A model generated the notes under the pieces. The model worked only from the letters and a program-made list of their open reading frames with translations, was not told the DNA's origin and searched no databases. A stretch of DNA of 63,459 bases, the filler included, from an uncultured bacterium (lineage in GTDB: Bacteria; CAYJOG01): the NCBI GenBank assembly GCA_964371695.1. It is 3 parts of 3 records of this genome, joined end to end, with 100 filler letters (N's around TTAATTAATTAA, not from the genome) between each part and the next. Parts side by side here need not be neighbours in the genome. Positions count along the whole stretch, not along the records: positions 1 to 21,940 come from CAYJOG010000003.1; positions 22,041 to 43,291 come from CAYJOG010000004.1; positions 43,392 to 63,459 come from CAYJOG010000005.1. The stretch is one strand, 5' to 3'. The position numbers and the translations under genes are program-made. Each line of letters starts with the position of its first letter. Within the stretch, counting starts at the first letter, position 1. Below are positions 767-61,111 of the stretch, in pieces.

Positions 767-875
767 GCTGATCCTTCCTGGCCGGCGTGGTTGTCCTGGT
801 CCGGTCCGGCCCGCATTTTAGTGCCTGTTTACAAAGTCTGCCCTTGGATTTTTCAGGGTGTTTATCAACACCTAA

Positions 876-1048
876 GAGTCTGTTTGAAAAGTCCGTCGTG
901 GACTTTTCAAACCCAACGCCTTCGGGGGCAAGCCCCCTTGGCGTGGCGAAAACCTCAGTGTTTTTAACACTTCGGCTTTCGGGTGCGGTCATCCATGACC
1001 GCAAGCCCCTGTTTGAAAACAAATCTCCATTCGTTTTCAAACAGGCTC
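876..1048. mobile_element. MITE-like structured element R1 (IS5/IS1031-like ends)
   Basis: TIRs GAGTCTGTTTGAAAA (876-890) and TTTTCAAACAGGCTC (1034-1048), flanked by TAA on both sides. Five internal hairpins. A related remnant lies at 818-872, and 846-872 is the reverse complement of the left end of R5. Confidence 0.75.
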
Positions 1049-2289
1049 TAATACGCCACGCGCCAGTCCAGTTGAATGCTGCGCTCCAGTTCAAGCTGGG
1101 GGCCGTTCAGGGTTTGCCAGATGGGCGCCAGCACCTCCAGCGACACCCGGTGGTGGTCGCTGCGGTCGGGGCCAAGGATGTTCAGGCCCAGCCCCAGGCT
1201 GATGCGCCTGCCCCCCTGGCGTTTGCTGTCCATGGTGGGGTCGGTGGCCGGGTTCAGTGCTTTGTCGTTCCCGGCCAGGTCGCCCCAGCTTTCCCACAAC
1301 AGGCGCGCCCCGGCGCTGGTGCGCTGGGTGAAGTTGTATTGGGCATAGGCGGTGGCGGCCAGTCTCGCGCCGGGTTTGTAATCCCGCTTGTTCGTGCCCA
1401 GACTCACCGCGCCGGTCATCTGCGCGCCCACTGTCCAGGGCACCCCCTGACGTTTGAACGAAAGCCCCGGCAGCAGTTCCATGGTGCCGCTGCCCAGTTG
1501 CATGGAGTAGGGCAGTTGCAGTTTGGCCCCGACGGTGAGGGGGGTGTCGTCTTTTTCGTCCACCGAGCCGGTGGGCAGGCTCAGGCCCAGGTGGGCGTGC
1601 CACGCGCCGCCACGGGTGGGGATTTTCCAGCGGGTGATGACCCGGATGTCCCCGAGGCCCTCGGCTTTGGTGCGGCTGGTGAGGTTGGTGTTGGTGAGGC
1701 TGTCGCGGTTGTGGATGACATAGGGCACACCCACCAGCAGCGCCGTGCGGTCGTTCAGGCCATAAGCGGCCTGCAGGCGGTGGGTGAGGGTGTTCTGGCG
1801 GGTGGGGGTGGTGGTGTAGGTGTACAGGTTGCGTCCCGTCAGGTTCACCACGTCGGGGGCGTTTACGCCACTTTTGCCACTGCGCAGACCCGACTTGCGG
1901 GTGTGACGCCACGCATAACCAAACACCCAGTCGCCGTGGGGGGGCGTGTGATCTGGCCAACGGCCGGGGGGGCCGACGTCGTCGGCGGTGACCTGGGGCA
2001 GTTCGGTTTTCATGCCTTTTTTGGAGGGGGGTTTGGGAATGTAGGCGTTGGGTTTCTTTTTGGGTTCCTCTGGTTTGGTGGGTGAGGCGGTTTTGGTTGT
2101 CTTGGGAGCCGCCTTGGCGGGGTCGGGGGGCGCTTTGATGTGGGCCTCTGGTTTGAACACCGGCTGGTTTTTGTGCTGGATGGTTTTGGGATGGTCGCTG
2201 GCTTGGGCGCTGGCGCTGAGGCACAGGGCGGTCAGGCTGAGGGCCAGTTTTAACAAGGCAGCGGGCAGCAGAGGCGTATGTTTGGCCAT
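1048..2289 (-). CDS. Putative outer-membrane beta-barrel transporter (MetA-pathway/phenol-degradation-like family)
   Basis: AAGGAG RBS before ATG 2289, signal peptide, Pro/Lys-rich linker, GLGDI, GLSLPTGS and LPYSMQLGSGT motifs, C-terminal aromatic residue (WRVAY). Confidence 0.7.
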   Translation of the reverse strand: MAKHTPLLPAALLKLALSLTALCLSASAQASDHPKTIQHKNQPVFKPEAHIKAPPDPAKAAPKTTKTASPTKPEEPKKKPNAYIPKPPSKKGMKTELPQVTADDVGPPGRWPDHTPPHGDWVFGYAWRHTRKSGLRSGKSGVNAPDVVNLTGRNLYTYTTTPTRQNTLTHRLQAAYGLNDRTALLVGVPYVIHNRDSLTNTNLTSRTKAEGLGDIRVITRWKIPTRGGAWHAHLGLSLPTGSVDEKDDTPLTVGAKLQLPYSMQLGSGTMELLPGLSFKRQGVPWTVGAQMTGAVSLGTNKRDYKPGARLAATAYAQYNFTQRTSAGARLLWESWGDLAGNDKALNPATDPTMDSKRQGGRRISLGLGLNILGPDRSDHHRVSLEVLAPIWQTLNGPQLELERSIQLDWRVAY

Positions 2290-2399
2290 GGGTGACTCCT
2301 TTGGGGATGGAACACCGGGACAATACCCATGCTGGTCTGGGGCCTCAAGCCCATAGCTGTTAACTTTCGGCAAGAAATCAAGGCTTTACGCGCTTTACA

Positions 2400-2488
2400 G
2401 GAGTAGGCGCGGTGTCCACACCGCGCAAAAGCTACAAAAAATCAAGAGTTTTCGCCCTCCACGGCGGTGTGGACACCGCTGCTACTCC
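2400..2488. repeat. Inverted REP doublet (REPIN-like)
   Basis: GGAGTAGGCGCGGTGTCCACACCGCGC at 2400-2426 and an inverted copy at 2463-2488 (reverse complement GGAGTAGCAGCGGTGTCCACACCGCC). Confidence 0.75.
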
Positions 2489-2522
2489 GGAATAGTTAGC
2501 ATCTATGGAGGCTCAAGCTTGG

Positions 2523-3575
2523 TTACAATGCACCCGCCCTGGCAGCCAATTGGCCGCAGGCGGCGTTCACCGCCTGGCCCCGCGTGTCGCGGCGGAACAC
2601 GTCCACACCGGCCTGACGCAGAACCGCCATGAAATCACCCACCTGTTTTTCGCCGGGGGGAGACTGGGTGAGCGGCAGGCCCGCCACGGGGTTCACCGGA
2701 ATCAGGTTGACCTTGAAGGGTTTGCCCTGCACCAGACGAGCCAGTTCGTGGGCCTGTTCGGGGGTGTCGTTCAGGTCGCTCAACAGGGTCCATTCCAGTG
2801 TGGTGGGCTGGTTGATTTTTTGGGCATAGGCCGCGCCAAAGTCGAGTAGTTCAATGATGCTGCTGCCCGCACGGGGAACCAGCGTTTGGCGCAGGTCTTC
2901 GGTGGCGGCGTGCAGCGACAGGGCCAGGCCCACGGGCAGCTCAAAGGTCAGCAGCCGGTCAAACCCGCCGCGCATTCCCACCGTGCTGAGGGTGATGTGG
3001 CGCGGCCCAAAGGCCCGGCCCCTGGGGTGGGTGATGAGGTGCAGAAACCGCAGCACGTTGTCCAGGTTCAGCATCGGCTCGCCCATGCCCATCAGCACCA
3101 GATGTTTGAGCGGCCCGGTCTGCGCCTCGGCCAGCGTCACCTGCTCCACCATTTCCCAGGGTTGCAGGTGGCGCAGAAAACCCAGGGTGCCCGTGGCGCA
3201 AAAGGCGCAGCCCACGGCGCAGCCGCATTGTGAACTGAGGCACAGCGTGTTGCGGCCTTCCAGGGGAATATGCACCATTTCAAAAAACTGCGGCCCGTCG
3301 CCCGTGAGCACCCAGCGGGTGGTGTCGTCCGGGGCGGCGTGGGTCTGCTGCACGTTCAGGGGAGTGAGGCGCACGGCCCCGGCCACGGTGTGGCGCAGGG
3401 CCTTGGGCCATGTGCTGAGGGCTTCAAAATCCCGCAGCCCCTGGGCGTGCAGCGCCTCGAACACCTGCATGGCGCGAAAGGCCGGTTGACCAAGCCCGCC
3501 AAGCAGGGCACCCCAGTCGTTGATGTCCAGGTCAAGGCCATGGGGCAGGGCGGCTGGTTTTTCATCGGTGTTCAC
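2523..3575 (-). CDS. rlmN: 23S rRNA (adenine2503-C2)/tRNA methyltransferase RlmN
   Basis: CLSSQCGCAVGCAFCATG (CxxxCxxC), MGMGEP, STVG, SLHA and C-terminal RG..VNAACGQL. Start placed at GTG 3575 to avoid overlap with dcd. Confidence 0.92.
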   Translation of the reverse strand: MNTDEKPAALPHGLDLDINDWGALLGGLGQPAFRAMQVFEALHAQGLRDFEALSTWPKALRHTVAGAVRLTPLNVQQTHAAPDDTTRWVLTGDGPQFFEMVHIPLEGRNTLCLSSQCGCAVGCAFCATGTLGFLRHLQPWEMVEQVTLAEAQTGPLKHLVLMGMGEPMLNLDNVLRFLHLITHPRGRAFGPRHITLSTVGMRGGFDRLLTFELPVGLALSLHAATEDLRQTLVPRAGSSIIELLDFGAAYAQKINQPTTLEWTLLSDLNDTPEQAHELARLVQGKPFKVNLIPVNPVAGLPLTQSPPGEKQVGDFMAVLRQAGVDVFRRDTRGQAVNAACGQLAARAGAL

Positions 3576-3594
3576 GCCGGTATAGTAACTCCCC
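3576..3594. promoter_or_regulatory. Bidirectional promoter with overlapping -10 boxes
   Basis: TATAGT (+, 3581-3586) is 8 nt before the dcd GTG. TACTAT (-, 3587-3582) is 6 nt before the rlmN GTG. Confidence 0.55.
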
Positions 3595-4233
3595 GTGATT
3601 CTCTGCCGCGAAGCCATTCTTGAAGCCTATGAACAGGGGCGCATTGTCATTGATCCTTTTGAGCCCTCACTGGTGAGCATCAACAGCGTGGATGTGCGCC
3701 TGGGCAGCGATATTTTTCGCCTGCGGCATCAGGATTTCCGTGATCTGTATCATGTGAGCGAGGACGCCTGGGAAAAAGTCGAACCGGTGGAAGTGGCCTG
3801 GGTGCGCAAAAAAATGCCCGGTTTTGGCGGCGAGGCGCTCAAGGATGACGACCAGGCGTTTCTGCTCAAAAGCGGCGAGTTTTATCTGGGCACGTCGCTG
3901 GAGCGCATCGGCACCGCCGTGCCCAAAGAGGGGGATGAAGCCCTGGTGGCCGAAATGAAAGCCCGCAGCACGGTGGGGCGTCAGGGACTCACGGTGGCGC
4001 TCTGCGCCGGACTGGGCGACGTGGGTTATCAGAGCCGCTGGGCGCTGGAAATCAGGGTGGTGGACTACGGCGACATTCCCCTGGTGGTGGGCACGCCCAT
4101 TGCCCAGGTGGTGTTTCACACCGCCACGCCCACCGCTCATCACTACATGGGTCAGGATCGTTATCAGGCAGACGCGGGAGAAGCCGCCCCCGCTGTGCGT
4201 TTTTTACCCAAAAACCTGCGGGTGGTGCGGTAA
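3595..4233 (+). CDS. dcd: dCTP deaminase
   Basis: MIL..EAI....I.IDPF, NSVDVRLG, ARSTVGRQG, DVGY...WALEI and IAQVVF motifs. Confidence 0.85.
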   Translation: MILCREAILEAYEQGRIVIDPFEPSLVSINSVDVRLGSDIFRLRHQDFRDLYHVSEDAWEKVEPVEVAWVRKKMPGFGGEALKDDDQAFLLKSGEFYLGTSLERIGTAVPKEGDEALVAEMKARSTVGRQGLTVALCAGLGDVGYQSRWALEIRVVDYGDIPLVVGTPIAQVVFHTATPTAHHYMGQDRYQADAGEAAPAVRFLPKNLRVVR

Positions 4234-4251
4234 CCCGAAAAAGGAAGTTCC

Positions 4252-5622
4252 GTGAAAGACAAAAAGTTTCCCAAGGGTTTCTGGTGGGGCACCGCCACGG
4301 CGGGGCATCAGTTTGAAGGCGGCAACGAACACAGCGACTGGTGGGCCTGGGAGAAAAAGGGCTTGGTGCGCGAGGGCCACGTGAGCGGCCGGGCCTGCGA
4401 CTATTGGCACAAGTGGCGCGAAGACCACCAGTTGATGAAAGACTTTGGCCACACCTGTTTTCGCCTGGGGCTGGAGTGGGCGCGCATCGAACCCCGCGAC
4501 GGCCAGTTCGACGAAAAAGCCATTGGGCAATACCGCGAAATGCTCGAGGATTTGCAGAGCAAGGGCATCCGGGTGTGCCTCACGCTCAACCACTGGGTGG
4601 TGCCCCAGTGGTTCCGCGCCATGGGGGGCTGGGAGCACAAAAAGGCCCTGGCTTATTGGGAGCGGTTCGTGAAAAAAGTCGTGCCTGCCCTGGCCCCCTG
4701 CGTGGACCTGTGGGTGACACTGAACGAACCCATGGTGCCCATCATCGCCGGTTACATCGCCGGATATTTTCCGCCGCAAAAAATCAATCCCCTGGCGGCG
4801 GCCACGGTGTTCCGCGCCCTGCTGCGGGCGCACGCCATCGCCTACCGGGTGATCCACGCCGAGGTGAGCAAAGCCGCCGGGGGCGGGCCGGTGATGGTGG
4901 GTTTTGCCAGCGCCATCCAGCACTTCGAGCCGTGGGACTACGACAACGGCGTGGCGTCGCTTTTGCAGCGGGCGGCGGCGCGGTTCCTCACCCAGACCAG
5001 CTATGCCTGCTGGGACGACAGCGTGACCAGCGGCCACGTCGCCCTGCCTTTTGGCCAGGGCCAGGAAATTCCCGACCTCAAAGACACGGTGGATTTTGTG
5101 GGCGTGAACTATTACACGCGCATCAGTGTGCGGCTGAACCTGGCCACCGTGAGCAACGTGATGACCGAGGGGTATGACATCCCGGAGGGCATCGAGAAAA
5201 CGGACATGGGCTGGCAGATTTTTCCACCGGGTTTTTATCATGTGCTGCGCGACCAGCACACCCGCTACGGCAAACCCATCTACATCACCGAAAACGGCTG
5301 CGGCGACGCGGGCGACGACATGCGGCGGCGTTATCTGCTCACCCACATCGCCCAGATGCACCGGGCCATTCAGGACGGCGTGGATATCCGGGGCTACTTT
5401 CACTGGACCTTTTGCGACAACTTCGAGTGGCGCGAGGGTTACACCAAAAAGCTGGGGCTTTTTGAGTTGGACCACAACGACCCGGACCTCAAACGCGTGC
5501 CCCGCCAAAGCGCCTACATGTTCCAGGAAATCGCCAAACACAACGGCATCACGCAGAAGATCGAAAACACCTACGGCCCCGGCTGCATCGAAAAATGGGA
5601 AAACGCCGTGGGGTTTGTGTAG
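4252..5622 (+). CDS. Glycoside hydrolase family 1 (beta-glucosidase/galactosidase)
   Basis: FPKGFWWGTATAGHQFEG, TLNEP (acid/base), ITENG (nucleophile) and DNFEW. Confidence 0.95.
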   Translation: MKDKKFPKGFWWGTATAGHQFEGGNEHSDWWAWEKKGLVREGHVSGRACDYWHKWREDHQLMKDFGHTCFRLGLEWARIEPRDGQFDEKAIGQYREMLEDLQSKGIRVCLTLNHWVVPQWFRAMGGWEHKKALAYWERFVKKVVPALAPCVDLWVTLNEPMVPIIAGYIAGYFPPQKINPLAAATVFRALLRAHAIAYRVIHAEVSKAAGGGPVMVGFASAIQHFEPWDYDNGVASLLQRAAARFLTQTSYACWDDSVTSGHVALPFGQGQEIPDLKDTVDFVGVNYYTRISVRLNLATVSNVMTEGYDIPEGIEKTDMGWQIFPPGFYHVLRDQHTRYGKPIYITENGCGDAGDDMRRRYLLTHIAQMHRAIQDGVDIRGYFHWTFCDNFEWREGYTKKLGLFELDHNDPDLKRVPRQSAYMFQEIAKHNGITQKIENTYGPGCIEKWENAVGFV

Positions 5623-5642
5623 GCCATCGTGAGGCGGTCGAT

Positions 5643-6416: not shown

Positions 6417-6476
6417 ACTTTGAGGCCCCTTAGGAATTTGAAAGTGTGGCTAAAATTGGAGGGATTGTTCTTTAGT

Positions 6477-9700: not shown

Positions 9701-9704
9701 GGAT

Positions 9705-13354: not shown

Positions 13355-14545
13355 ATGGTCAGCCGCTTTCCGCAACCCGCGATGTTTGTTGTGTCCACCA
13401 CCGTTTTTCAGGGGCTGGGCGCACTGTCGCAGGTGGCGGTGGAACTGGACCGGCGGGGCCTGAGGCGTGCTCTGGTGGTGAGCGACAAAACCCTGCTGGC
13501 TCTGGGGCACGTGGCGCGACTGGAAGAAGTGCTGGGGCCGCGCTGCGCCGGTGTTTGTGTGGACGTGGTGAGTGATTCCAGCCCCCACAGCGTAGAGGGC
13601 GCGGTGGTGGTGGGTGAGGCTTATGATGCCGATGTGGTGGTGGCCCTGGGGGGCGGCAGTGTGCTGGACACCGCCAAGCTGGCGGCGGCGGTGCTGGGCA
13701 GTGAGGCCCCCTTTGGTGCGCACCTGGGTCTGGACAATGTGCAGGGTCAGCCCTTGCCGCTTTTGGCCATTCCCACCACCACGGGCACCGGCAGCGAAGT
13801 GGCCATCACCGCCATGATCAAAGACGCCGACATGGGCAAGAAACATGTCTTCCGCGACGCCAAACTGGCCCCCGTGGCGGCTTTTCTGGACCCGGCCCTG
13901 GCCATGACACAACCCCCGGACCTGCTGGCCGCCACCGCGATGGACACGCTCTCTCACGCCATGGAGGCCCTTTTCAGCACCTGGGCCAGCCCTGCCAGCG
14001 ACGCTTTGGCGCTGGAGTCTGCCCGCCTTGTGCTGGCCCACCTGCCGGGGGCCTTGGCGGCGGATGAAAAGGAAACGCACGTGACGGCGCTGCAATGGGC
14101 GGCGTCTCTGGCGGGCATGGCTTTCAGCAATGCGGCGGTGGGGCTGGTGCATGCCTTGAGTCACACCATCGGCGCACGCCACAACATTCACCACGGCAAA
14201 ATCAACACCGTGCTGCTTGCGCCGGTGCTGCGGTTCAATCAACCCGCCATCACACCCAAGGCCGCCGCTGTGGCCCGCCGTCTGGGGCTGGCGGCCCACG
14301 CCAAAACAGAAGAAGACGCGGCGGCAAAGTTGATCACCAACATCGAAAAACTGGCCGCCTCGCTGCCATTGCCCCGTTCACTCAAGTTGCTGGGTGTGGA
14401 CCAGAAGGCGGTGCCCAACATGGCGGTGGAAACCCTGAAGGAGCCGTGCCTGTTCACCAATCCCCGCGAAGTGTATGACACCAAGGTGATTGAAGATTTG
14501 CTCCATGGCCTGTTTGACACCAATTCTGAACCGGGAATGCCGTAA
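13355..14545 (+). CDS. Iron-containing alcohol dehydrogenase
   Basis: GGGSVLDTAK, IPTTTGTGSE, DTLSHAME and GLVHALSH...HNIHHG motifs. Confidence 0.93.
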   Translation: MVSRFPQPAMFVVSTTVFQGLGALSQVAVELDRRGLRRALVVSDKTLLALGHVARLEEVLGPRCAGVCVDVVSDSSPHSVEGAVVVGEAYDADVVVALGGGSVLDTAKLAAAVLGSEAPFGAHLGLDNVQGQPLPLLAIPTTTGTGSEVAITAMIKDADMGKKHVFRDAKLAPVAAFLDPALAMTQPPDLLAATAMDTLSHAMEALFSTWASPASDALALESARLVLAHLPGALAADEKETHVTALQWAASLAGMAFSNAAVGLVHALSHTIGARHNIHHGKINTVLLAPVLRFNQPAITPKAAAVARRLGLAAHAKTEEDAAAKLITNIEKLAASLPLPRSLKLLGVDQKAVPNMAVETLKEPCLFTNPREVYDTKVIEDLLHGLFDTNSEPGMP

Positions 14546-14778
14546 GTCACAGGAAGGGATAATGGCCAAGGAACGATGACTGAACCAGTAACGGGCGAGA
14601 AGAATTGGTATGAATTCATGGATGAATTCAGTTCGAATGCCGAGGCGCAATCAGCGCCGAAGGTGTTCGCGGCAGGGAGCTGGCTTTGCCTGCGCCCTGC
14701 CGGGCCGAAGCCATTCAGGACGAATGGCAAGGCCAAGAAAAAGATTCCAATTCATGCTTTTTTGAATTGGAATCGGTA
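14518..14778 (+). mobile_element. Composite MITE-like structured element R6 (candidate CsrB/Rsm-like RNA)
   Basis: TGA-(C)ACCAATTC ... GAATTGGTA-TGA (93-bp module) ... GAATCGGTA-TGA. Homologous to R7 at 60759-61111. Several hairpins have AGGA/ATGGAT loops. Confidence 0.7.
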
Positions 14779-14795
14779 TGAGAGCGTGGCGGAAA

Positions 14796-21757: not shown

Positions 21758-21940
21758 GAAAACCTGTTTATAAAGTCAGCTGTGGACTTTAAAACCCATA
21801 ACAAAACTCCCTCCGTGGAGTTTTGTTATCGCCGAGACGGGGAATGAATCCCCGTCTCGAGCGCGAAACCCTACAGGTTTTTAACCCTCCGGGTTTCGGA
21901 TGCGGACCATCCAGGTCCGCAGATCCCCCAACAAAACCAG
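21758..21940 (-). mobile_element. MITE-like structured element R2 (cut by contig end)
   Basis: End GAAAACCTGTTT followed by five hairpins. 21864-21921 is homologous to R1 947-1003, and 21798-21899 is the reverse-complement homolog of R4 47242-47338. Confidence 0.7.
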
Positions 21941-22040
21941 NNNNNNNNNNNNNNNNNNNNNNNNNNNNNNNNNNNNNNNNNNNNTTAATTAATTAANNNN
22001 NNNNNNNNNNNNNNNNNNNNNNNNNNNNNNNNNNNNNNNN
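21941..22040. other. Artificial contig spacer (N run containing TTAATTAATTAA)
   Basis: 100-nt block with a six-frame stop linker at 21985-21996. Confidence 0.95.
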
Positions 22041-31000: not shown

Positions 31001-34000
31001 ACATGACCCTGTGCCTGGATGAAGCCCAGTTCGGCGACACGCTTTCGCGCTCGGTGGCCTTTACACAGGCGGGGGGCACGTTCCAGGATGCGGACCTCAA
31101 CGAGGCCCCCACCAACGCTGCGGTCACCAGCATCGACGCCGCCAAACCCCACATGATTTATGTGCAGGGGTATGTGAACAGCGCCGACCTCATCGTGGCC
31201 TTCACCGAGCCGGTTTACTCCGCGCCGGGCGGGGCCACGCCCCTGGTGGGCACGGACTTTGCCATCACCGACGTGGACAACGGCCGCACGGTGTTCTCGG
31301 CCACCCACAGCGCGGGTGATCTCACCGCCACCGTCACCCTCTCCTCGCCGGTGGATACCGCCGCCGACATCGGCACCGATGCCTTGGCTCCCACTGCCGC
31401 CAATATTTATGACGCCGCGGGCAACGCCGCATTGGTGGGCAACATACTGAGCATTTCCGAACGTATCCTGACCTGGACCGGNNNNNNNNNNGCCGACGAC
31501 AAACTGGTGATTTCCTCTGTGGGCATTCAGCCCGCCACGGTGAACGTGGCCCTGAGCGCCCGCGACGTGGAGATTCTTGCAGGGGCAACCCTGAATGGCG
31601 GTGCGAACGTCCTGACGGTTTCGGGTGACTTTGTGGTGCAGGGTGGCGGCGCGTTTACACCGTCCACCGGCACGGTGGCGTTCAACAATCTGGTGGAAGT
31701 CTCCACCAACGCCACGAGCTTCAACAACCTGAGCACCAACAGCGCTGCCGCAGACCTGGTGCTTTCCACCAGTGTGACGGTGGGGGGCAACCTCACCAAC
31801 GCCGGTTCCGTCAGTCAGAGCGGCGCGCTCACGCTGGCGGTGACGGGCAACGTGTCTGGCGCGGGCGACATTCTGCGCAACGGCACGGGGGCCCTCACGG
31901 TGGGCGGCGACATGAACACAACGGGCAACCTCACCTGCGCTGCGGGTGTGAACTGCCGCATTGTGCTGGGCGGCACGGTCACCAGCCTGGGCACCTTCAC
32001 GGCGGCCCTGGGTGAAGTGGAATATGCCAGCAACACCGTGGGGCAAAACATTCCGGCGGCCACCTTCAACCGGCTCATCCTCAACAACCCCGGTCAGGTG
32101 GCCACGCTTGCGGGCAACATCGTGGTGAGCGAAAGCCTGCGGGTGATGAGCGCCACGGGCCAGCTCAACGGCGGGGCCTCCAGCATTGACCTGAAGGGTG
32201 ACCTCATCACCGACGGCGACTACGCCACGCCTTTTGCCAGCGTGGCGCTGGGCATGACAGGCGCGGGCAATACGCAGCTCATCAGCGCCAGCGGCATCAT
32301 CACCACGTTCACCGTCAACAAGGCCACCGGCACGGCGCGCATCAACACCGTGTCGCCGGGTGTGTTCAAAGCCAGCACGGCCACCCTTACCAGCGGCGTG
32401 CTGGACCTCAATGGCAAATCACTCACCATGGGCACGGGCGGCACCCTGGCGCTGAACGGCGGCACGCTGCTGAGCACGCTCACCGGCAGCAAAATCACCA
32501 GCACCACCCCCGGCGTGGCCACCTATGCCTTTAACGTCAACGGGGCCACGCTGAGTGTGAGCAACCTCATCATCGAGAGCACCAACGCCTCTGGCTTCAA
32601 CTTCCAGGCGGGTGTCATCACTGCGTTTGACAACGTGGTCTGGCAAACGGGCAACACCATTTACGCCATCTTTGACAGCGCGCTGGGCACACAGAACTTC
32701 TACAACCACTACTTCAACGCCGGTGTGGCCACCAACGTGCGCACACTGGGCACCAGCACGGGCACACTGAACTTCATCGACAGCACGGGGCCGGGTGCGG
32801 GGCCAGCCACCGATGACCCCCAGGGCGCGGCCATCAACTGGCAGAACACCTTTAACCTCGCGGGCTTCTGCGCCAACAACGGTGTGAACATCCGCTGGAC
32901 CCGCAACGGTGCGTTGCAGGCTGGCCCCTATGTCTGTGCGGGCAACGCCTATGCCTTCACGGCACTGCCCGCCGCCACTGCGGATGTGGTCACAGTGTTT
33001 GAAGACGACGGCGGTGATGGTGCGAACGACAACCTGCTCATCTTCAAGGTGCCGGGTGGCAACATCAGCACTGCTGATTTGCCCAATCACCCCAATGGTC
33101 AGGCGAATGTCTACAACTTTGGCGGCGGTGCCGTGAACATCGCCGATTTGGCCACGTCACTCATCGGTGACACCGATTATCCCTACACCATGGCCGCCAA
33201 TGTGGTGATGGATGCCGGGGCGGATATACAGGTCATGTCTGGCGCGGACTTCCGCATCACTGCTGCGCCTGTCATGGGGCTGGGCACGGGCGCTTTGCTG
33301 GTGAGCGGCAGCGCTACGGTGAGCGCCGGGGCCACCCTCACACTGGGGGGCGACCTGATGGTGAGCGGCCTGTTCCGCAACGTAGGCAGCTTCACGGTGG
33401 TCGGCCAGATGGACGCCACGGGCGGCGCGCTGGAACTGGTCAGCGGCGCAACGCTGAACCTGGACGGCCCCATCGTCAGCCTGGGCGCATTCACCTTCAG
33501 TCCTTCTTCCACGGTGGCGTTGAATGACACGGTTTCGCCGCAAACCCTTCCCAGTGGCGACTATCCCGATCTGGTCATCAACAAAACAGCCCAGACCGCC
33601 ACGCTGGGGGGCAACCTGAGTGTGTCGGGCAACCTCACCATCACCAACGGTGTGCTGAGCAACGGCGGCTTTAATCTGATCGTGTCGGGCAGCACCACTG
33701 TTTCGCCTGCGGCCACCAGCCAACTCGTGCATAGCGGCGGCAACACCACCCTCACGGGCAACGTGAACAACAGCAAAGACATCACGCTGTCTGGTGTGGG
33801 CCTGTTGCGCATGCTGGGCAACTACGCCGGAGGCGGCACGGCCATACTGGCCATCAACAACGCGGCGGCCACCGCCGTGGTGAGTGGTTCCTACAACGCC
33901 CTGGGCGGCCTGCTCACCTTTGGCGCAGCGGGCGTGCTGGAACTGAACGGCCCGCTCACCGACATCGGCACCGCCGCTTGGGGCACGGGCCTGTTGCGCC

Positions 34001-43291: not shown

Positions 43292-43391
43292 NNNNNNNNN
43301 NNNNNNNNNNNNNNNNNNNNNNNNNNNNNNNNNNNTTAATTAATTAANNNNNNNNNNNNNNNNNNNNNNNNNNNNNNNNNNNNNNNNNNNN
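43292..43391. other. Artificial contig spacer (N run containing TTAATTAATTAA)
   Basis: 100-nt block with linker at 43336-43347. Confidence 0.95.
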
Positions 43392-44239: not shown

Positions 44240-44300
44240 GAGCCTGTTCTGGATCAAAGAACTTGGTTAAAAAGTCCACGACGGACTTTTTAACAGGGGC
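44240..44300. repeat. Short MITE-like remnant R3
   Basis: GAGCCTGTT end plus hairpin GTTAAAAAGTCC-ACGAC-GGACTTTTTAAC (44266-44294), whose 21-nt core is the exact reverse complement of R1 887-907. Confidence 0.65.
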
Positions 44301-47131: not shown

Positions 47132-47346
47132 GAACCCATCTCAAAAGAATTTTGAGATGGGTTTGCGGGCCAGAGTTTGCGAGGGATCTTTCCAGATGCC
47201 CATTAGGGCATCTGGCCGAGCAAAGGCGGTAGCGGACCGCCCCGAAAACCGGAGGATAAAAAATCCGTAGGTTTTTGCGCTCGTGGCCGGGATTTACTCT
47301 CGGCCACGGCGGTCGAAAAAGTTCAGGATGGACTTTTGAGGCGAGT
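47132..47346 (+). mobile_element. MITE-like structured element R4
   Basis: End GAACCCATCTCAAAA with degenerate partner TTTTGAGGCGAGTT. 47173-47228 is nearly identical to R5 50835-50890, and 47242-47338 is homologous to R2. Confidence 0.7.
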
Positions 47347-47380
47347 TATGAATGAAAAAATCTCTGCTAGTCTACCGGTC

Positions 47381-48904
47381 ATGATCAAACTGAGCTTCAG
47401 TTCCAAACCCGCCAAAACCCCCGCCCTGCAAGTGGTTTTTGTCAAAGACGACAAAAAGTCGCCAGTGTTGCTGGTGGAGGACAAAACCCTGGCCCCCGTG
47501 CTGCTGCGCTTGCACAAAGAAGGTGTTTTTTCAGGCAGGATGGCCCAGATACATTTCAGCGAAAACCTGAGCGGGGCCTCGGTGTTGTGGGTGGGACTGG
47601 GCACGGGCAAGGAACATCCCGATCATTCCCGCGCCGAAGAAGCCCGCCGGTTGGGCGGCAAGGTGTTCAAGGCGTTGGCGCAGGCCCCTGCAGGCGGCGC
47701 GCAATTTGAAGGGCTGGACAAAGCAGCAGGGCACCTTTCTCTGAAACCCGCCCAACTGGTGGAGAGTCTGGCCCTGGGTATGCGTTTGGCGGATTTCCGT
47801 TTTGACGAATACAAAACCAAACCCAAAGACCGCAAGGAGCGCGCCATCACCCTGCACCTGCCCGCGCCCGGCGCCGAAGCGGCGCTGAAACGGGCAGAGC
47901 AACTGGCCGCCGCCGCCATCAACTGCCGCAGGTTGCAAGCCACGCCGCCCAACGTGGCGTTTCCTGCGTACATGACCAAAACCGCCCGTGATCTGGTGAA
48001 GGGGCGCAACATCAAGCTCAAGGTCTACGGCAAAAAGGAGCTGAAAGACAAAAAGTGCGTGGGTTTGCTCACCGTGGGGGGAGGCAGTCAGCACGACGCC
48101 CAGATGCTGGTGCTGGACTATTCCCCGCCGGGTGCAAAGGCCACCCTGGGGCTGGTGGGCAAGGCCATCACCTTTGACACGGGGGGCATTTCACTCAAAC
48201 CCGGCGCGAAGATGCACGAAATGAAATACGACAAGTCCGGCGGCTGTGCGGTGTTGCACGCCTTGGCGGCGGCGGCGGATCTGAAGCTGCCCTATCGCAT
48301 CGTGGGCATTGTGTGTGCGGCAGAAAACATGCCCAGCGGCCACGCCGCCCGGCCTGGGGACATCATCACCTACCGCAACGGCAAGTCGGTGGAAATATTG
48401 AACACCGACGCAGAAGGCCGGCTGGTGCTGGCCGACGGCCTGATTGAAATGGGGTCGTTCAAACCCGACGTGGTGCTGGACTTGGCCACCCTCACCGGTC
48501 TGTGCGCCATGACGTTTGGCCCCTACGCCGCTGGGGTGATGAGCAACCATCAGCCCCTGGCCGACGCACTTTTGGCATCGGGCCTGCAAAGTGGCGAGCG
48601 GGTGTGGCAGTTGCCGTTGTGGGAGGACTACGCCGAGGCCATCAAGGGAGAACACGCGGACATCCAGAACATCGGCGGTCCCTTTGGCGGCACCATCACG
48701 GCGGCGCACTTCCTCAAGAATTTTGTGCCCAAGGAAACCCCCTGGGCGCATCTGGACATTGCCGGTGTGGCCTGGGGCAACTTCAAGTCGGCTTACATCC
48801 CTAGTGGCCCCAGTGGCTTTGGCGTGCGACTGCTGCTGGATTTTCTGGAACAACACGGCAAAGACCTGCCCGGTTTCAAAAAAGGATTTGGCGGCAATGA
48901 CTGA
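47381..48904 (+). CDS. pepA: Leucyl aminopeptidase (M17)
   Basis: VGKAITFDTGGISLKP, MKYDKSG, NTDAEGRLVLAD, DLATLTG and WAHLDIAG motifs. Confidence 0.95.
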   Translation: MIKLSFSSKPAKTPALQVVFVKDDKKSPVLLVEDKTLAPVLLRLHKEGVFSGRMAQIHFSENLSGASVLWVGLGTGKEHPDHSRAEEARRLGGKVFKALAQAPAGGAQFEGLDKAAGHLSLKPAQLVESLALGMRLADFRFDEYKTKPKDRKERAITLHLPAPGAEAALKRAEQLAAAAINCRRLQATPPNVAFPAYMTKTARDLVKGRNIKLKVYGKKELKDKKCVGLLTVGGGSQHDAQMLVLDYSPPGAKATLGLVGKAITFDTGGISLKPGAKMHEMKYDKSGGCAVLHALAAAADLKLPYRIVGIVCAAENMPSGHAARPGDIITYRNGKSVEILNTDAEGRLVLADGLIEMGSFKPDVVLDLATLTGLCAMTFGPYAAGVMSNHQPLADALLASGLQSGERVWQLPLWEDYAEAIKGEHADIQNIGGPFGGTITAAHFLKNFVPKETPWAHLDIAGVAWGNFKSAYIPSGPSGFGVRLLLDFLEQHGKDLPGFKKGFGGND

Positions 48905-50219: not shown

Positions 50220-50222
50220 GAC

Positions 50223-50813
50223 ATGAAGCAATGGCCAGAACTAAAGGTGGTTTTGGAGCGTTTTGACCAGTTCGGCTGGTTGTTGGGCACCAGCGGCAAT
50301 TTTTCACTGCGCGAAGGGGACCGGTTTTTCCTGAGCCGATCGGGCGTGCGCAAGGGCGAGATGACGGAACAGGATTTTGTGGCGCTGGCCGTGGAAGGTC
50401 CCTGGCCGCCGCAAAAATCAGCCCATCCCCCCAGCGCCGAAGGCTCGCTGCATCAGGTGATTTATCAGGCTTATCCCGTTATGACCTGTGTGGTGCATGC
50501 CCACACTCCGGCAGCCACGCTGGCTGGGTTAAAGGCGCAGGCGCAACCGGAGGGGCTTGTTTTCAGCGACATCGAAATGCTCAAGGGGCTGGAGGGCATT
50601 GACCCGCTCCTGCCATTTCATTTTCCGGTGTTCACAAATCACCCGGTGGTGGAGCACATTGCGACAGAGCTGCGCACCCATCTGGCGGGGGGTGTCGCGC
50701 CGCCGGTGGTGCTGCTGGCGGGCCACGGCGTCACCGCCTGGGGGAAAACCGTAGACGCCGCCTGTCGGCATTTTGAAATTGCCGAGTTTTTGTGCCGATT
50801 AGCAGGGTGTTGA
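50223..50813 (+). CDS. mtnB: Methylthioribulose-1-phosphate dehydratase (class II aldolase family)
   Basis: GW..GTSGNFS, SGVRKG, PSAE..LH, HAH, EMLKGL and GHG..AWG motifs. Confidence 0.85.
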   Translation: MKQWPELKVVLERFDQFGWLLGTSGNFSLREGDRFFLSRSGVRKGEMTEQDFVALAVEGPWPPQKSAHPPSAEGSLHQVIYQAYPVMTCVVHAHTPAATLAGLKAQAQPEGLVFSDIEMLKGLEGIDPLLPFHFPVFTNHPVVEHIATELRTHLAGGVAPPVVLLAGHGVTAWGKTVDAACRHFEIAEFLCRLAGC

Positions 50814-51008
50814 TAAACACCCTGAAAAATCCATGAGTTTGCGAGGGTTCTTTCCAGATGCCCATTGGGGCATCTGGCCGAGCAAAGGCGATAGCAGATT
50901 TTGCCGCTTGCAGGGGTCAAAAGACCTCTGCAAAAGCGTTGTTTTGCGAGGGCTTTGCCTGAGCAAAACAGGTTGAGAAAGGCCAGGAGGGACTTTCTCA
51001 ACAACCTG
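50803..51008 (+). mobile_element. MITE-like structured element R5 (IS5/IS1182-like ends)
   Basis: TTAG-CAGGGTGTTGATAAA ... TTTCTCAACAACCTG-TTAG: TIRs match 13/15 with a 4-bp TTAG duplication. Internal hairpins are shared with R1 and R4. Confidence 0.78.
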
Positions 51009-51097
51009 TTAGTGGTTCCTCCTCCGGGCGAATAACCGGAAGCAGTAAAATCTCCCCCCTGCCTTGGGATATTCTTCTCAAAGGCTTTTGACGATTC

Positions 51098-52558: not shown

Positions 52559-52596
52559 CCAGCCAAAGTTCTTTTACAGACCACTACAATCACCCG

Positions 52597-54681: not shown

Positions 54682-54740
54682 TTTTCCGGTTGCCGAATTA
54701 TTCCCGGCCATTACACTGGCCCCATGCAAGGAGACGCCGC

Positions 54741-57337: not shown

Positions 57338-57895
57338 GCCGCAAACCCGCCATCAAACTTTCTTCGTGCCGCGTGGTGGTGGTGGACAACTACGATTCCT
57401 TCACCTACAACCTGGTGCAATATTTTGGTGAGTTCACGCCGCATCTCACCGTGGTGAGAAACGATCAGGTGCTGGCCGGGGACATCGAAAATCTGTCTCC
57501 TACCCATCTGGTCATCAGCCCTGGGCCAGGGAATCCCGATGAAGCGGGCATCAGCAAAGAGGTCATTTTGCGTTATTCCGGTGTTTATCCTTTGCTGGGC
57601 GTGTGCCTGGGGCATCAGTGCATTGGCGAGGTTTTCGGGGGAAGGGTGGGGCTGGCCAAAACTCTCATNNNNNNNNNNGTCCAACCCCATGGAGGCCACC
57701 CGTTATCATTCCCTGGCGGTATCCCGCAAAGGTCTACCCAAAGTTCTGCGGGTGACGGCCCACACCGAAGACGGTGAAATCATGGGCCTGCAACACCTGA
57801 GCCATCCTACGTTTGGCGTACAGTTTCACCCCGAAAGCGTTCTGACCCATCACGGCAAAAAACTCATCAAAAACTTTCTGATGCTTTCGGACTGA
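57334..57895 (+). CDS. trpG: Anthranilate synthase component II / glutamine amidotransferase (spans N gap 57669-57678)
   Basis: [16 protein letters not shown] and GVCLGHQ before the gap; RYHSL and GVQFHPES after it. Confidence 0.92.
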
Positions 57896-59719
57896 TTACA
57901 CCGGCCATTCCAGCATCACCATGGCCTGATCATCCCGTGGTGTGCGGGACTGGCTGAAGCGGATGGTGGTTTCGCTGAGCCGCCGCAAGAGCGCCTCTGC
58001 AGGCAGGTGACCTTCCTGCGCCAGCATGTCTCCCAGGCCTTCTTCTCCCCACCACTCGCCCTGGGGTGAGAACACTTCCGTCAGGCCATCGGTGTGCATG
58101 AGCACCTTCATGCCGGGCACAAGGTGTACGTCCACCGTGACGTTCGTGGGAGGGGCTTTGAGGAACTGGTGCAGGTTGAGCGGCGGCAGCGCCGGGCCGG
58201 GAAGCTGCGAGGGCGGCTCTGACTTTTTCCACACCCAGGGGGGCGGATGTCCGGCCCTGGCGAGTTTGAGCGTATGGCTGGGCAGGTGATAAACCGCGCA
58301 GATGGCCGTGACGTAGTGGCGATCCGGGCTCACGGTGTTTTCAGAGAGAAACGTATCGAGTTGCATGAGGATGCGAGAGGGGTCCGGCGTCTGTCCGCCG
58401 GTGCTCTGCTCGCGCACCGCCGAGGGCAAGGCCCCCTTCAGCGCCATGGTCACCATGGCGGCCCCCGCGCCATGACCGCTCACGTCCGCCATGAAAATCA
58501 CCAGGAAATCTTCTTCCATCAATATGTCGAAAAAATCGCCGCACAGTTCCGAGGCGGGCTGGAAATGGCAAAAGATTTTCAGGGGAGGGGCCTCGATGGC
58601 CAGGGGTGGCAACATGGCCCGCTGCACCTCGCGCCCGGCCATGAGTTCCGCCTGTTTTTCTTCAAGCGAGGTGCGGTGCGAATGATTGGAGAGGTCCAGT
58701 TCCTTCACCAGCGTGGACATGCGGAAAGACACAAGGCTGGCCGCCCCAGCCGCAATACCCACCAGCAGCACCGCCAGCAGGCCAATGCGCCAGCGGGCGC
58801 GCTGCTGCTCGCGTTTCAGGGATTCCAGGCCATAACCCAGCCGCAACAGGCCCACGGGTTTTCCCTTGTGCCAGAGCGACACCGCAATGTCCATCACTTC
58901 GCCGTAGCCCTTCTGGCGAACCGGTGTCACGCGCACCGGCAGGTGGTCCATCACGGCAAGGGCTTTCAGGGCCACAGGGTCCTGGGTGCGGCGTCCTTCC
59001 TGGCGTTTGGCGGCCGCCAGACTTTTACCCTGGCTGGCGTTGAACACCACCTGACCATCGGTGAGCAGCAACTGGCTGTAAAGCACGTGGGATTTGTTTC
59101 GCGAAAAATCAGCCAGCACATTGCCCAGCTCAACCCAGCGGCCTTCCTGCATGGCCTGCGCCCCCTGGCGGGCGATGTCCTGGGCGAAGTCCACCATGGC
59201 CTGCACCTGCAGGTTCTGCTGAGGGTCTCCCAGCACCACACCCAGATACAGGTCTCCCAGCCGGACCTTGTTCTTGCGCAGCCCCAGGCTCTGGCCGCCG
59301 GTCCAGTCCAGCGCAGAACGGACGTAGGACAAATCCCCGGACAACATGTCAGGCGAAAACGTCTTGCCCGTTATTTTGCCCATCAGGTCAAACACCACAC
59401 GGTTGTCGCGGCGGCGCACCAGCAGGGCGTCCTGAATATCCGGGTGTGCCCCCAGCACCTGGGTGAGGGCGTGGCTGATGCGGGAACGTTCATCGAAATA
59501 CAACTGTTTGGCCAGGGACTGGGAAAGGCTTTCTCCCAATAACGCGGTGCGGCTGAGTTGTTGCTCATGGAACTGCCGCCGGTTGTCCCTGTCTTTGTAA
59601 AGGCTGGTGACCAGCACGCTGCTGATGACGCACAGCGCGCCAAAAAACGTATAAAAAAGCAGCAGGCCCTGGGCAGGGCGTCTGGCCAGACGAAACAAGC
59701 CGGAGGAGGGGAGTTTCAT
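57896..59719 (-). CDS. Membrane-bound SpoIIE/RsbU-type PP2C phosphatase with extracytoplasmic sensor region
   Basis: Two TM helices; ELMAGREVQRAMLP, CGDFFD, ADVSGHG, RAGHPPP, HTDGLTE and DDQ motifs. Confidence 0.88.
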   Translation of the reverse strand: MKLPSSGLFRLARRPAQGLLLFYTFFGALCVISSVLVTSLYKDRDNRRQFHEQQLSRTALLGESLSQSLAKQLYFDERSRISHALTQVLGAHPDIQDALLVRRRDNRVVFDLMGKITGKTFSPDMLSGDLSYVRSALDWTGGQSLGLRKNKVRLGDLYLGVVLGDPQQNLQVQAMVDFAQDIARQGAQAMQEGRWVELGNVLADFSRNKSHVLYSQLLLTDGQVVFNASQGKSLAAAKRQEGRRTQDPVALKALAVMDHLPVRVTPVRQKGYGEVMDIAVSLWHKGKPVGLLRLGYGLESLKREQQRARWRIGLLAVLLVGIAAGAASLVSFRMSTLVKELDLSNHSHRTSLEEKQAELMAGREVQRAMLPPLAIEAPPLKIFCHFQPASELCGDFFDILMEEDFLVIFMADVSGHGAGAAMVTMALKGALPSAVREQSTGGQTPDPSRILMQLDTFLSENTVSPDRHYVTAICAVYHLPSHTLKLARAGHPPPWVWKKSEPPSQLPGPALPPLNLHQFLKAPPTNVTVDVHLVPGMKVLMHTDGLTEVFSPQGEWWGEEGLGDMLAQEGHLPAEALLRRLSETTIRFSQSRTPRDDQAMVMLEWPV

Positions 59720-59783
59720 GAGAGGGACGCCAGCATAAAAAGGTTTGTGGGTGGTTGGCAAAGCGGCTGGTTAAACTGTAGCG

Positions 59784-60758
59784 GTGCCAAAGGGTAAAAA
59801 AAGGGGATGGATCGGCTTGCCGGGTGTTCTTTGGCGTGCCGCTGGCCTGGGGTGTGTGGTTTTTGGGTTGGTGGCGCTGGGTTTTGTGGCTAGGGCCAAG
59901 GCGGGTGAGGGGAAAAGTCTACGGGTGACCGTGGGGGTGTATTACGGTTTTGGGGCTACGCAGGACACCGACCTGAAAATGCTTCACCTGGAGCTCCTCA
60001 AACGCCTGGGGGGCAAACTGGGGGTTTCTTATACCCTGCGGGTTTATCGGTCTTTGGATCTTTTTGAAACGGCAGTAAAAAACGAAGAGCTGGATTTTGT
60101 GCAGGCCCCTCTGGGGGGTGCGCGCATGGTGCCTGCGGCCATCAAGGCCGGTTATAAACCGGTGCTTTTGGTAAGTGCGCGCAACCGGCGCACCGACCAG
60201 ATGTGTGTGTTCACCCGCAGCGGAAAAACCCTGTCGAAATGGAAAGACCTGAAAGGCAAAAAGCTTCTGGTTGGCCCCGAAAAAATGGCCTATTTTCTTT
60301 TGCACAAGGAGATGGGAAAGGATCCACGGGCTTTTGTGGAGGAGATGATTCCCGTTTCCAGCGCGTTTTCTGGTTTTTATGGTCTGATGCTGGGGCAGGG
60401 GGACGGGGTGTTCAGCCACCGCGTGGTCTATGACAGCCTCAAGGAGATCAACCCCGGCGCGGTGGCGCGCATCCAGCGGGGGGTGTGTGCCGAGCCGCCG
60501 CTTCCCATGCCCATTCTGCTGGTGCATCCGCGGGTTCCCAAAAAACATCTTGCAGACACCGTGAAACTTGCCCGTCAGGCCGAAAAGGAACCCCTCTTCA
60601 AACCCTACCGCCCGCTCATCAAAAAGTTCCACATCAAGGTGGTGGAGCCGGAAAAAGCTGATTACGAGCCCATGCTGCGCCTGTGGAAAAAAGCTCACGA
60701 AGAAGGCTGGGAAAAACACTACAACACGTGGCGCAAGGCTTTGGCAGCCGGGTCTTGA
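59784..60758 (+). CDS. PhnD/SsuA-like periplasmic substrate-binding protein
   Basis: N-terminal signal/TM, ELDFV, GYKPVL, KDLKGKKL and P.PILLVHPRVP pattern. Confidence 0.65.
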   Translation: MPKGKKRGWIGLPGVLWRAAGLGCVVFGLVALGFVARAKAGEGKSLRVTVGVYYGFGATQDTDLKMLHLELLKRLGGKLGVSYTLRVYRSLDLFETAVKNEELDFVQAPLGGARMVPAAIKAGYKPVLLVSARNRRTDQMCVFTRSGKTLSKWKDLKGKKLLVGPEKMAYFLLHKEMGKDPRAFVEEMIPVSSAFSGFYGLMLGQGDGVFSHRVVYDSLKEINPGAVARIQRGVCAEPPLPMPILLVHPRVPKKHLADTVKLARQAEKEPLFKPYRPLIKKFHIKVVEPEKADYEPMLRLWKKAHEEGWEKHYNTWRKALAAGS

Positions 60759-61111
60759 TACCAATTCTGATCCGAGATGTCATTAAACCACCGAAAGGGT
60801 CGGCTGGCAGGAAGCCTGAATGAAATCAGGAAGAGATGAGAAGAATTGGTATGAATTCATGGATGAATTCGCTTCGAACATCAAGGCCCGGACGCACCAG
60901 GAGGGCGCGTGAAGCCCGCCGAGGGGACAATGTCCCAGAAGACGGTGGTTTCAAAAGTTCAGGAAGAACTTTTGAAACAATCCCAAAAGGCCGCCGATGT
61001 TCGCGGCGCAAGCGGGCTTTGCCTGCGCCGCGCCGGGCCGCAGCCATTCACGACGAATGGCAAGGCCAAATAAAAGATTCCAATTCCTGCTGTCTGGAAT
61101 TGGAATCGGTA
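60759..61111 (+). mobile_element. Composite MITE-like structured element R7 (candidate CsrB/Rsm-like RNA)
   Basis: TGA-TACCAATTC ... GAATTGGTA-TGA (93 bp) ... GAATCGGTA. Homolog of R6 with an extra ~90-bp hairpin cassette related to R1. Confidence 0.72.

Follow-up and report, generated by a model that had tools for sequence, protein, structure and literature searches.

Hairpin-chain MITE families with a common building plan, and a 60-nt element nested in hairpin loops, in the genome of an uncultured bacterium

Introduction

[quoted passage not shown] Here we describe seven repeat elements, R1–R7, in a stretch of DNA of 63,459 nt, referred to as the window, from the metagenome-assembled genome (MAG) of an uncultured bacterium (GenBank assembly GCA_964371695.1). 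An original prediction, made from the window by itself, had taken these to be MITE-like elements that shuffle covarying RNA-hairpin cassettes between different terminal repeats.

The closest described elements are the MITEs of the IS5/PIF-Harbinger kind, such as the Tourist-like elements and Chunjie of Geobacter uraniireducens, which are small, gene-less, high in copy number and mostly intergenic, with short terminal inverted repeats (TIRs) and target-site duplications (TSDs) of TNA, 4 bp or TA. TNA targets are used by IS1031-type elements and a YTAR-like site by IS5 itself, and such targets typify the IS1031/IS427/ISL2 and IS5 groups. General MITE features and Chunjie are treated in the available text of a 2024 MITE review (PMC10969869), a text in which the words ‘nested’, ‘mosaic’ and ‘compensatory’ are absent, and the available part of another source describes canonical Harbinger elements as kin of the IS5 family with 3-bp TSDs (PMC12730594). 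The elements described here resemble these MITEs in the properties listed. They differ in that a cognate transposase was not found in the MAG, in that a chain of covarying hairpins with fixed loops is common to families with different TIRs, and in that the TIR itself forms a palindrome at one end.

As far as the available texts go, bacterial interspersed mosaic elements (BIMEs) are mosaics of hairpin units (PMC2817692, PMC3333891), ISs are known to target REPs (PMC1525189; ISPpu9, PMC12288879), and in Anabaena, Thermomicrobium and Halothiobacillus longer palindromes have been reported with REP dimers inserted in them (Di Nocera et al. 2013, PMC3733652). The present genome likewise has GC-rich, GTAG-tagged REPs, inverted REP doublets and three RAYTs with their own REPs. 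However, the seven elements, unlike REPs, BIMEs and the REP doublets known as REPINs, have TIRs and true duplications and lack the GTAG tag, whilst the REPs of this genome serve as hosts for a further element, H. H in turn is unlike the insertions known to target REPs, being 60 nt long, gene-less and without TIR, GTAG tag or duplication, and entering, with a single polarity, at least six unrelated kinds of hairpin, those of MITEs and also REPs.

Two other systems offer partial parallels. The Bacillus cereus group has bcr1, a small repeat that is transcribed and includes direct repeats, and in it compensatory changes keep an RNA structure, according to the available part of Delihas 2011 (PMC3184786). 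Compensatory changes also maintain structure in our elements, but here several families with different ends share an architecture and loop motifs, and sense orientation is confined to the R6 type. The likeness to CsrA-binding RNAs of the CsrB/RsmZ type serves as a lead only: each element has several GGA-loop hairpins and the genome has csrA, but the elements are dispersed mobile copies rather than one small-RNA gene and show no overall sense bias. Neither these families nor any H-like element turned up in the literature searched.

The seven elements are members of abundant repeat families

The window consists of three separate contigs joined artificially, C3 (positions 1–21940), C4 (about 22041–43291) and C5 (43392–63459), with spacers at 21941–22040 and 43292–43391 in which runs of N surround TTAATTAATTAA. 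The span 818–61111 to which a single family had been assigned is therefore not a single locus, and distances or neighbourhoods across the spacers are meaningless. R1, R6 and R2 lie in C3, and R3, R4, R5 and R7 in C5; two 10-N scaffold gaps are present at 31482–31491 and 57669–57678. The MAG has 3,425,294 bases in 672 contigs and is 83% complete, with 2.2% contamination. Its sequence occurs in four sediment metagenome runs, and a relative of ~91% identity occurs in two groundwater runs. It stands alone in its phylum among the genomes compared, and a search for relatives in 40 genomes that share only its domain gave one match, at chance level.

All seven elements are present where they had been placed, with ends and flanks that can be read directly, and the window is without a transposase, as had been remarked. 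A genome-wide BLASTN search for copies, suggested with the original prediction, gave 47–192 high-scoring segment pairs for each element, well beyond what chance would yield. Self-comparison of the assembly gave 1328 regions with at least five repeat hits, totalling 198,707 bases (5.8%), with 83% of repeat bases lying outside genes by crude gene calls. The case illustrates how hairpin repeats, one building on another, can come to occupy ~6% of a bacterial genome. These repeats also break the assembly, 414 of 1344 contig ends touching a repeat region. The elements were split into modules, from which nhmmer profiles were built and used to annotate the genome. Every element folds as a chain of hairpins, on either strand.

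MITE families, their ends and their target duplications

R1, R5 and R6 belong to true MITE families, which upholds their supposed MITE-like nature. The TIRs, seen across many copies, are GAGYCTGTTT../..AAACAGGCTC for the R1 type (family 1), CAGGGTGTTGA../..TCAACACCCTG for the R5 type and TACCAATTC../..GAATCGGTA for the R6 type. Family 1 elements are 147–265 nt long, those of the R5 type ~150 nt and those of the R6 type ~260 nt, with copies numbering from dozens to more than 100. Target duplications are 3 bp TNA for R1 and R6, TA or TNA for R2 and R4, and 4 bp, TTAG-like, for R5. Amongst 48 full copies of family 1, the 3-nt flanks are identical in 25, and TNA is found on both sides in 28, with the same middle base in 22 of these 28; shifted controls gave 0 for both the identical flanks and the equal middle base. 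Identical 4-nt flanks, such as TTAG, ATAG or CTAA, are present in 16/38 members of the R5 family (control 0). For the R6 family, 10 of 18 full copies have identical 3-nt flanks, mostly TGA, compared with 2 in the control, and the same N is found in 10 of the 11 copies bearing TNA on both sides. Families 2 (R4; ends GAACYCATCTC) and 3 (R2; ends GAACCCCTRACAAAA) have TA or TNA flanks in their few complete copies. Matching duplications of this sort would imply staggered cuts and therefore a DDE-type transposase, and the targets and TSDs are of the types, TNA with 3 bp and YTAR-like with 4 bp, that groups of the IS5 family use.

R1 (876–1048, + strand) is a full copy of family 1, flanked by a TAA duplication (873–875 and 1049–1051). 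From one TNA to the other, members of the family have GAGCCTGTTT leading into hairpin B, then hairpin C, the two-hairpin cassette D and a variable stretch between GAGCCTGTTT and AAACAGGCTC. In R1 this is realized as hairpin B (882–912), hairpin C (913–946), cassette D (947–1007) and end palindrome E (1008–1048), in which a direct repeat of the TIR inside the element is joined to the inverted TIR. To its left lies a degenerate mini-element (820–872, − strand) with a family-1-like end, GTGCCTGTTTACAAAGTC, and an R5-type end palindrome (845–872). This palindrome is complementary at 28/28 positions to the left end of R5 (50806–50833), so that the reported match between the flank of R1 and R5 is real. 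R3 (44240–44300, +) is a short family-1-like element, GAGCCTGTT ... B-type hairpin ... CAGGGGC, with a 27-nt stretch that is 93% complementary to R1 884–910.

R2 has two parts. The left part is a solo B-type hairpin, AAAGTCA..GGACTTT (21761–21795, +), and the main part is a family-3 MITE (21796–21940, +) with a first hairpin, hairpin G and cassette D, cut off at 21940 by the contig end; its complete relatives (on contigs C564, C187, C114, C393 and C410) terminate in a palindrome of the same TIR. R4 (47132–47347, −), a MITE of the family-2 type, has an end palindrome (47132–47164), cassette D, hairpin G and a B-type hairpin, and the loop of its D hairpin is interrupted by H (47174–47233, +), an imperfect hairpin with a DNA fold of −15.5 kcal/mol (z −4.4). 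R5 (50803–51008, +), with a TTAG duplication at 50799–50802 and 51009–51012, runs from an end palindrome, CAGGGTGTTGATAAACACCCTG, through hairpin 2 and hairpins I and J to the K hairpin and TIR. A second H (50836–50895, +) lies in the loop of hairpin 2, between the arms AAAATCCATG and AGATTTT. The module reported as shared between R4 and R5 was recovered by BLAST as 93.75% identity over 64 nt (47173–47236 and 50835–50898).

R6 (14518–14778, +), a full copy of its family, is bounded by a TGA duplication (14515–14517 and 14779–14781) and abuts the end of a co-oriented gene upstream. R7 (60759–61111, +; flanks TGA and TCA) is an enlarged copy of the R6 family; its likeness to R6, which had been noticed, amounts to 89% identity over 105 nt. 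An insert of about 100 nt (60889–60988, +) occupies the loop of its Q hairpin, in the arrangement AAGGCC / insert / GGCC. The insert has several hairpins, one of which is B-like, resembles the first hairpin of R1 (an R1 module had been reported in R7) and is reversed relative to family 1. Six further copies (C599, C479, C536, C569, C577 and C177) also diverge from the Q hairpin past AAGGCC.

A common building plan for families with different ends

One plan is common to families 1, 2 and 3 and the R5 family. The TIR merges into the first hairpin, whose form is AAAGTCC-N5-GGACTTT; after it come two to three internal hairpins, the last of them capped with TCCA (TGGA on the other strand), and the far end is a palindrome composed of an internal direct TIR copy and the inverted TIR. 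Modules also occur singly in the genome, with 43 solo copies of the R5-type end palindrome, one being the degenerate left neighbour of R1, as well as 53 of H and 32 of D.

A scan of metagenome contigs with the first-hairpin motif gave 77 loci. TCC is present on the same strand in 58 of 62 orientable first-hairpin loops. The end palindrome was found in 28 of the 50 loci that were orientable and long enough, placing the element end at a distance of 145–186 nt from the B hairpin's first base, and an internal TCC-loop hairpin in 31 of 50 orientable loci. A single 1.55-Mb contig carries at least nine copies. Many metagenome contigs thus carry five-hairpin MITEs resembling R5, and this recurrence of the plan makes the R5-like superfamily a widespread one among environmental bacteria. 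Exact-pattern scans, which diverged copies would escape, found no H and no R6 P hairpin in 185,579 species genomes and no H in metagenome contigs, and R5 and R1 had no match in plasmid records.

Stems vary by compensation and loops are fixed

The compensatory base pairs quoted in the original prediction were found in the sequence, and covariation is strong at the level of whole families. Across 40 of the 63 copies of family 1, 97.1% of pairs are standard, compared with 89.8 ± 0.3% after shuffling (0/500 as high), and both sides have changed in 18 of 46 pairs, compared with a shuffle mean of 9.2 (again 0/500 as high); slid controls gave 28–52% pairing. Over all 63 copies there are 214 double changes that keep Watson–Crick pairing and 71 single-sided departures (36 A.C, 12 G.U and 23 others), although family-1 copies share descent and the ~23 extra Watson–Crick pair types summed over 38 pairs are therefore the safer measure. 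For the core of the R6 family (23 copies), 99.1% of cells are paired, compared with 96.7% after shuffling (0/500), with both sides changed in 7 of 44 pairs.

In the R6 family just one strand, the sense strand, tolerates G.U, which is found at 13 pair positions, with A.C at one. The unpaired columns are free of any mutation bias that would yield such an asymmetry; two fixed-G.U positions contribute 33 of the 45 G.U cells. The corresponding asymmetry is weak in the R5 family (14 vs 9 sites).

Whilst stems are variable, loops are fixed. NGGA is found in 23/23 R6 P hairpins and 24/25 R5 hairpin-2 loops, AGGAN in 23/25 K loops and, on the opposite strand, TCC in 57/63 loops of family-1 hairpin 4. 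Stems kept by compensation together with fixed loops argue that a folded single strand, either single-stranded DNA (ssDNA) or RNA, is preserved. No known RNA family was recognized: the whole window gave no Rfam match at gathering scores, and up to E=5 there were four, all far under their cut-offs and to no plausible family, including TLS-PK4 (834–916, minus strand; 23.5 bits, the cut-off being 80; E 0.75), which overlaps the left end of R1.

Element H is nested in hairpin loops

The module common to R4 and R5 proves to be a separate element, H, with ~75 nhmmer hits, nearly identical to one another, and 51 complete copies. Almost without exception it sits within another hairpin's loop. It has no gene, TIR or GTAG tag of its own, and exists as two subtypes that differ through compensatory changes in the stem. 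Perfect host arms of at least 5 bp within 5 nt of the junction flank 33 of the 51 complete copies, compared with 80 of 1993 random controls. The hosts include the final hairpin of cassette D, R5-family hairpin 2 and at least four kinds of GTAG-tagged REP, amongst others; just 3–4 of ~38 R5-family copies contain H. One such REP type is present in the window at 2400–2490 as an inverted pair of GTAG-tagged hairpins (a REPIN-like doublet) that the original prediction did not list. It lies in a repeat region (2349–2508) with up to 57 hits, a regular expression for REP2 gives 99 hits in the genome, and at other loci this REP type carries H. Judged as GC-rich palindromes of 20–40 nt with a GTAG/CTAC tag and without duplication, these and other repeats (REP1–4, 2400–2490) are REPs or REPINs and the seven elements are not.

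Comparison of empty and filled loops in four REP types shows that H substitutes for 3–4 loop bases without duplication, as in CCCGGC-GGG-AC vs CCCGGC-H-AC and TGTG-GACA vs TGTG-H. For nine H-bearing copies of family 1, the median identity of the hosts is 79% and that of H is 96.7%, with H more alike than its hosts in 35 of 36 pairs; H has thus come into hosts that had already diverged, at one and the same place in the loop. The orientation of H does not vary, with CTAC-type tags 3' of H in 26 copies and GTAG-type tags 5' in 2. A test of H as an IS200/IS605-type palindrome-associated transposable element (PATE), for which a hairpin near the ends and insertion 3' of one fixed tetra- or pentanucleotide would be expected, found no TSD and a fixed polarity, but one central hairpin only, and the bases 5' of H depend on the host (CATG, GGG, GGC, GGT, GTG).

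Polarity extends to neighbouring repeats. Adjacent modules of different families have the same polarity in 30 cases and the opposite in 2, whilst concordance is 13 vs 11 at 300–1000 nt and 38 vs 38 beyond 3 kb. The effect is lost past 1 kb. The polarity rule therefore acts locally, at the target, and independently of replication; the replication strand as its cause is ruled out by the even division beyond 3 kb.

The landing of a 60-nt element on the hairpin tips of other repeats, in one polarity, provides a concrete, testable case for integration directed by structure as opposed to sequence. A more ambitious proposal is that H is the first tiny gene-less element to integrate, in a set direction, into the apical loops of DNA hairpins whatever the sequence of their stems, swapping 3–4 loop bases without duplication, probably on ssDNA via a RAYT-type HUH enzyme. 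The proposal adds a lineage-wide, strand-specific loop code (NGGA / ACGAC, in REPs, MITE hairpins and H hosts) that would be read by a common factor, either the transposase on ssDNA or CsrA on RNA, and this would explain why families with different ends share a hairpin plan. Taken as a whole this proposal is tentative and, in our estimate, more doubtful than not by a good way.

Origin of the mosaics

The original prediction held that the cargo is independent of the vehicle and borrows several kinds of end. Three end types are indeed found with cassette D, and 5 of 56 classifiable copies are hybrid. The ends match in the other 51 (40 in family 1, 6 in family 2 and 5 in family 3), a distribution that fits diverged sister families with rare hybrids. 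Shuffling between end types is thus genuine but a minor route, and the independence of cargo and vehicle stands in this limited form.

Most of the mosaicism reflects insertions nested, with a fixed polarity, in the loops of hairpins. This holds for the R4/R5 and R6/R7 mosaics, which had been ascribed to borrowed cassettes; the R4/R5 module is H, which is mobile and has no TIR of its own. The main source of mosaics would be such nesting, H having entered apical loops both in MITE copies that had diverged and in RAYT-type REPs, and R7 having gained its loop insert; a second would be side-by-side insertion within the same spacers, and a third, rare, the joining of families via the common D cassette.

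Gene context and a possible RNA role

The R6 family has a clear relationship to genes. In tandem contexts 13 of 15 copies are co-oriented with the genes, and many start no more than ~10 nt from the end of a co-oriented upstream gene or overlap the called open reading frame by ~20 nt. As a separate observation, the R6-type duplication is mostly TGA and is often at or near the upstream stop codon (as at 14515–14517). A start at the stop together with a TGA duplication means that insertion could regenerate or supply the stop codon. Elements of the R6 type are probably transcribed as structured 3' ends of mRNAs, to judge from their position, and are good candidates for a mobile 3'-untranslated region (UTR) module, being in sense orientation, behind stop codons and with G.U-tolerant stems.

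Family 1 and H are indifferent to gene orientation (16 sense and 15 antisense copies in family 1; 7 and 6 for H). A preference of family 1 for terminators or 3' ends is ruled out, the 31 tandem, 8 convergent and 10 divergent contexts being background-like. The lack of orientation bias in family 1 and H, and of a gene-end preference in family 1, makes it more likely that structure is kept for folding-dependent propagation. The findings as a whole have a bearing on what MITE hairpins are maintained for, transposition or a function as RNA.

Perfect hairpins with GGA or TCC loops number 788 of 3750 in the genome, but those with GGA loops have no significant sense bias genome-wide (125 sense vs 102 antisense, p 0.14). 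Known CsrA sites are GGA in hairpin loops, and we take CAUGGAUG and CAGGA to resemble such sites. A csrA gene (86 bits, NCBIfam) is present on contig C181 (extracted locus L095, 1367–1522). The GGA loops and csrA together suggest, by analogy, that CsrA may bind these hairpins. C181 also has two identical copies of a longer stretch that includes a truncated D module (3059–3093 and 4330–4364).

Mobility and the weighing of explanations

The reading we favour, to which we give a probability of about 0.65, is that R1–R7 belong to several very abundant families of non-autonomous DNA transposon (MITE) in a sediment bacterium, which would be moved by cut-and-paste by DDE transposases of the IS5/Harbinger kind acting in trans, that these families share a building plan and nest in one another's loops, and that the R6 type probably also forms mRNA 3' ends. 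Supply of the transposase in trans is postulated because the assembly holds no such gene.

Mobility is supported by an empty site in the ~91% relative, of the kind that had been suggested as a check. A contig of run X6 joins 47132 to 47355 with only GGC between, and in run X5 there are 126 nt between the aligned blocks, compared with 343 nt in the window; R4 is therefore absent in the relative. In X6, too, a contig follows the window to 44232 (before R3), continues for 30 other letters and resumes at 50800, the left end of R5. By comparison with the relative's contig, R4 seems to have landed in the last codons of the upstream gene (47132–47382). The gene pair is tightly packed, with an ATGA stop/start overlap near 47379–47382, and the upstream frame extends into R4.

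Several points weigh against the favoured reading, the most obvious being the missing enzyme. A DDE transposase was not found in the MAG, searches with PF01609, PF13586, PF13358 (IS630-type) and PF13359 giving no hits in an assembly of 672 contigs that is 83% complete. The search for a full-length IS sharing the TIRs, proposed with the original prediction, also failed in this incomplete MAG, the TIR-anchored matches being just mini-palindromes and chance matches. The sole transposases found were three RAYT-like genes (NF047646, 79.7–80.1 bits, cut-off 80). IS copies are often lost from MAGs, and given a fragmented, incomplete assembly the missing DDE gene does not show absence. For R5 the evidence for an empty site is from length only, the interval 50317–51009 being 472 nt in the relative and 691 nt here (a difference of 219, roughly the size of R5). 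Kinship among copies inflates the cell counts of independent compensatory events. The strand asymmetry of family 1 is not robust, with 8 G.U and 22 A.C sites in one structure and an alternative alifold structure that adds G.U pairs on the opposite strand. As regards H, 18 of 51 copies have no clear arms, its junctions vary by host (GGG/H/TG, /H/AC, TGTG/H/, CATG/H/G) without a single cut rule, and some flanks are chimeric, with left and right arms from different hosts (C381, C23, C98, C292, C306 and C538), which suggests recombination or conversion between H copies. Lastly, DDE insertion at a near-palindromic TNA site would not predict the fixed polarity of neighbouring and nested elements.

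The RAYT genes lie on contigs C29, C53 and C11, each beside its own GC-rich REP and not beside the repeats of the seven elements. The C53 gene is the only one of the three to be followed, within ~400 nt downstream, by MITE modules and a copy of H, and one RAYT gene has an H-filled REP ~200 nt downstream. The RAYTs account for the REPs, and are candidates for moving H, because H is without duplication, has a fixed polarity and targets hairpins. The REP hairpins that flank RAYT genes are followed by short tandem tails of the CCCCACTAAAGGA and GCCACCAGAAC types (L001 1940–2030; L003 1209–1300 and 1877–1912).

That only RAYTs were found, each with its own REP, raises the alternative that all the repeats, the seven elements included, are of the REP/BIME type and are moved as single strands by RAYT (Y1 HUH) enzymes, with TIR plus duplication being a target or cleavage motif. 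Every family is dominated by hairpins, and the strict local polarity (30 vs 2) and the fixed orientation of H without duplication suit single-strand chemistry. However, the matching middle base of TNA (22/28 and 10/11) and the matching 4-nt flanks (16/38) are true duplications and not products of HUH enzymes, the seven elements lack the GTAG tag of the REPs in this genome, and the hairpins that flank the RAYT genes are other, shorter ones; we regard this alternative as distinctly unlikely. A little easier to entertain, though still improbable, is the idea that the host maintains the chains of hairpins for a function as RNA (3'-UTR stabilizers, terminators or multi-site binders of CsrA), with mobility secondary. 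The sense orientation of R6 behind stop codons (13/15) and its tolerance of G.U (13 sites vs 1 for A.C) support this idea, and the conserved NGGA/TCC loops, the abundance of GGA/TCC-loop hairpins (788/3750) and the presence of csrA fit it too, but the orientations of family 1 (16/15) and H (7/6), the GGA loops (125 vs 102, p 0.14) and the background-like intergenic types do not, and the elements are recent insertions with duplications, one of them missing in a relative.

Compensation might also arise without selection, if intrastrand template switching (quasi-palindrome correction) had kept the arms alike and the mosaics were the random debris of old insertions. Stems are near-perfect in all families, truncated or solo modules are plentiful (53 H, 43 end palindromes, 32 D), and hybrid and chimeric flanks do exist. 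Such correction is strand-symmetric, yet the R6 family has G.U at 13 sites and A.C at 1; the loops are asymmetric and conserved across families and metagenome lineages; the polarity of nesting is fixed; and H sits at the same loop position in hosts that are just 79% alike. These features make template switching a very unlikely account.

Other features of the genome and window

A homopolymer-run repeat on the RAYT contig C29 (L001 1283–1397) consists of G12C11-type palindromes separated by runs of A, T or C. It is hit up to 44 times genome-wide and, with a glutamine-synthetase-like gene just upstream of it, adjoins the RAYT gene; it could be real or an artefact of sequencing or assembly. Within the window, the middle contig is nearly filled by a single open frame of 6803 aa (22054–42465, +), with internal repeats every ~4.44–4.47 kb (families D2, D3 and D9–D16), which therefore appears to encode a giant repetitive protein.

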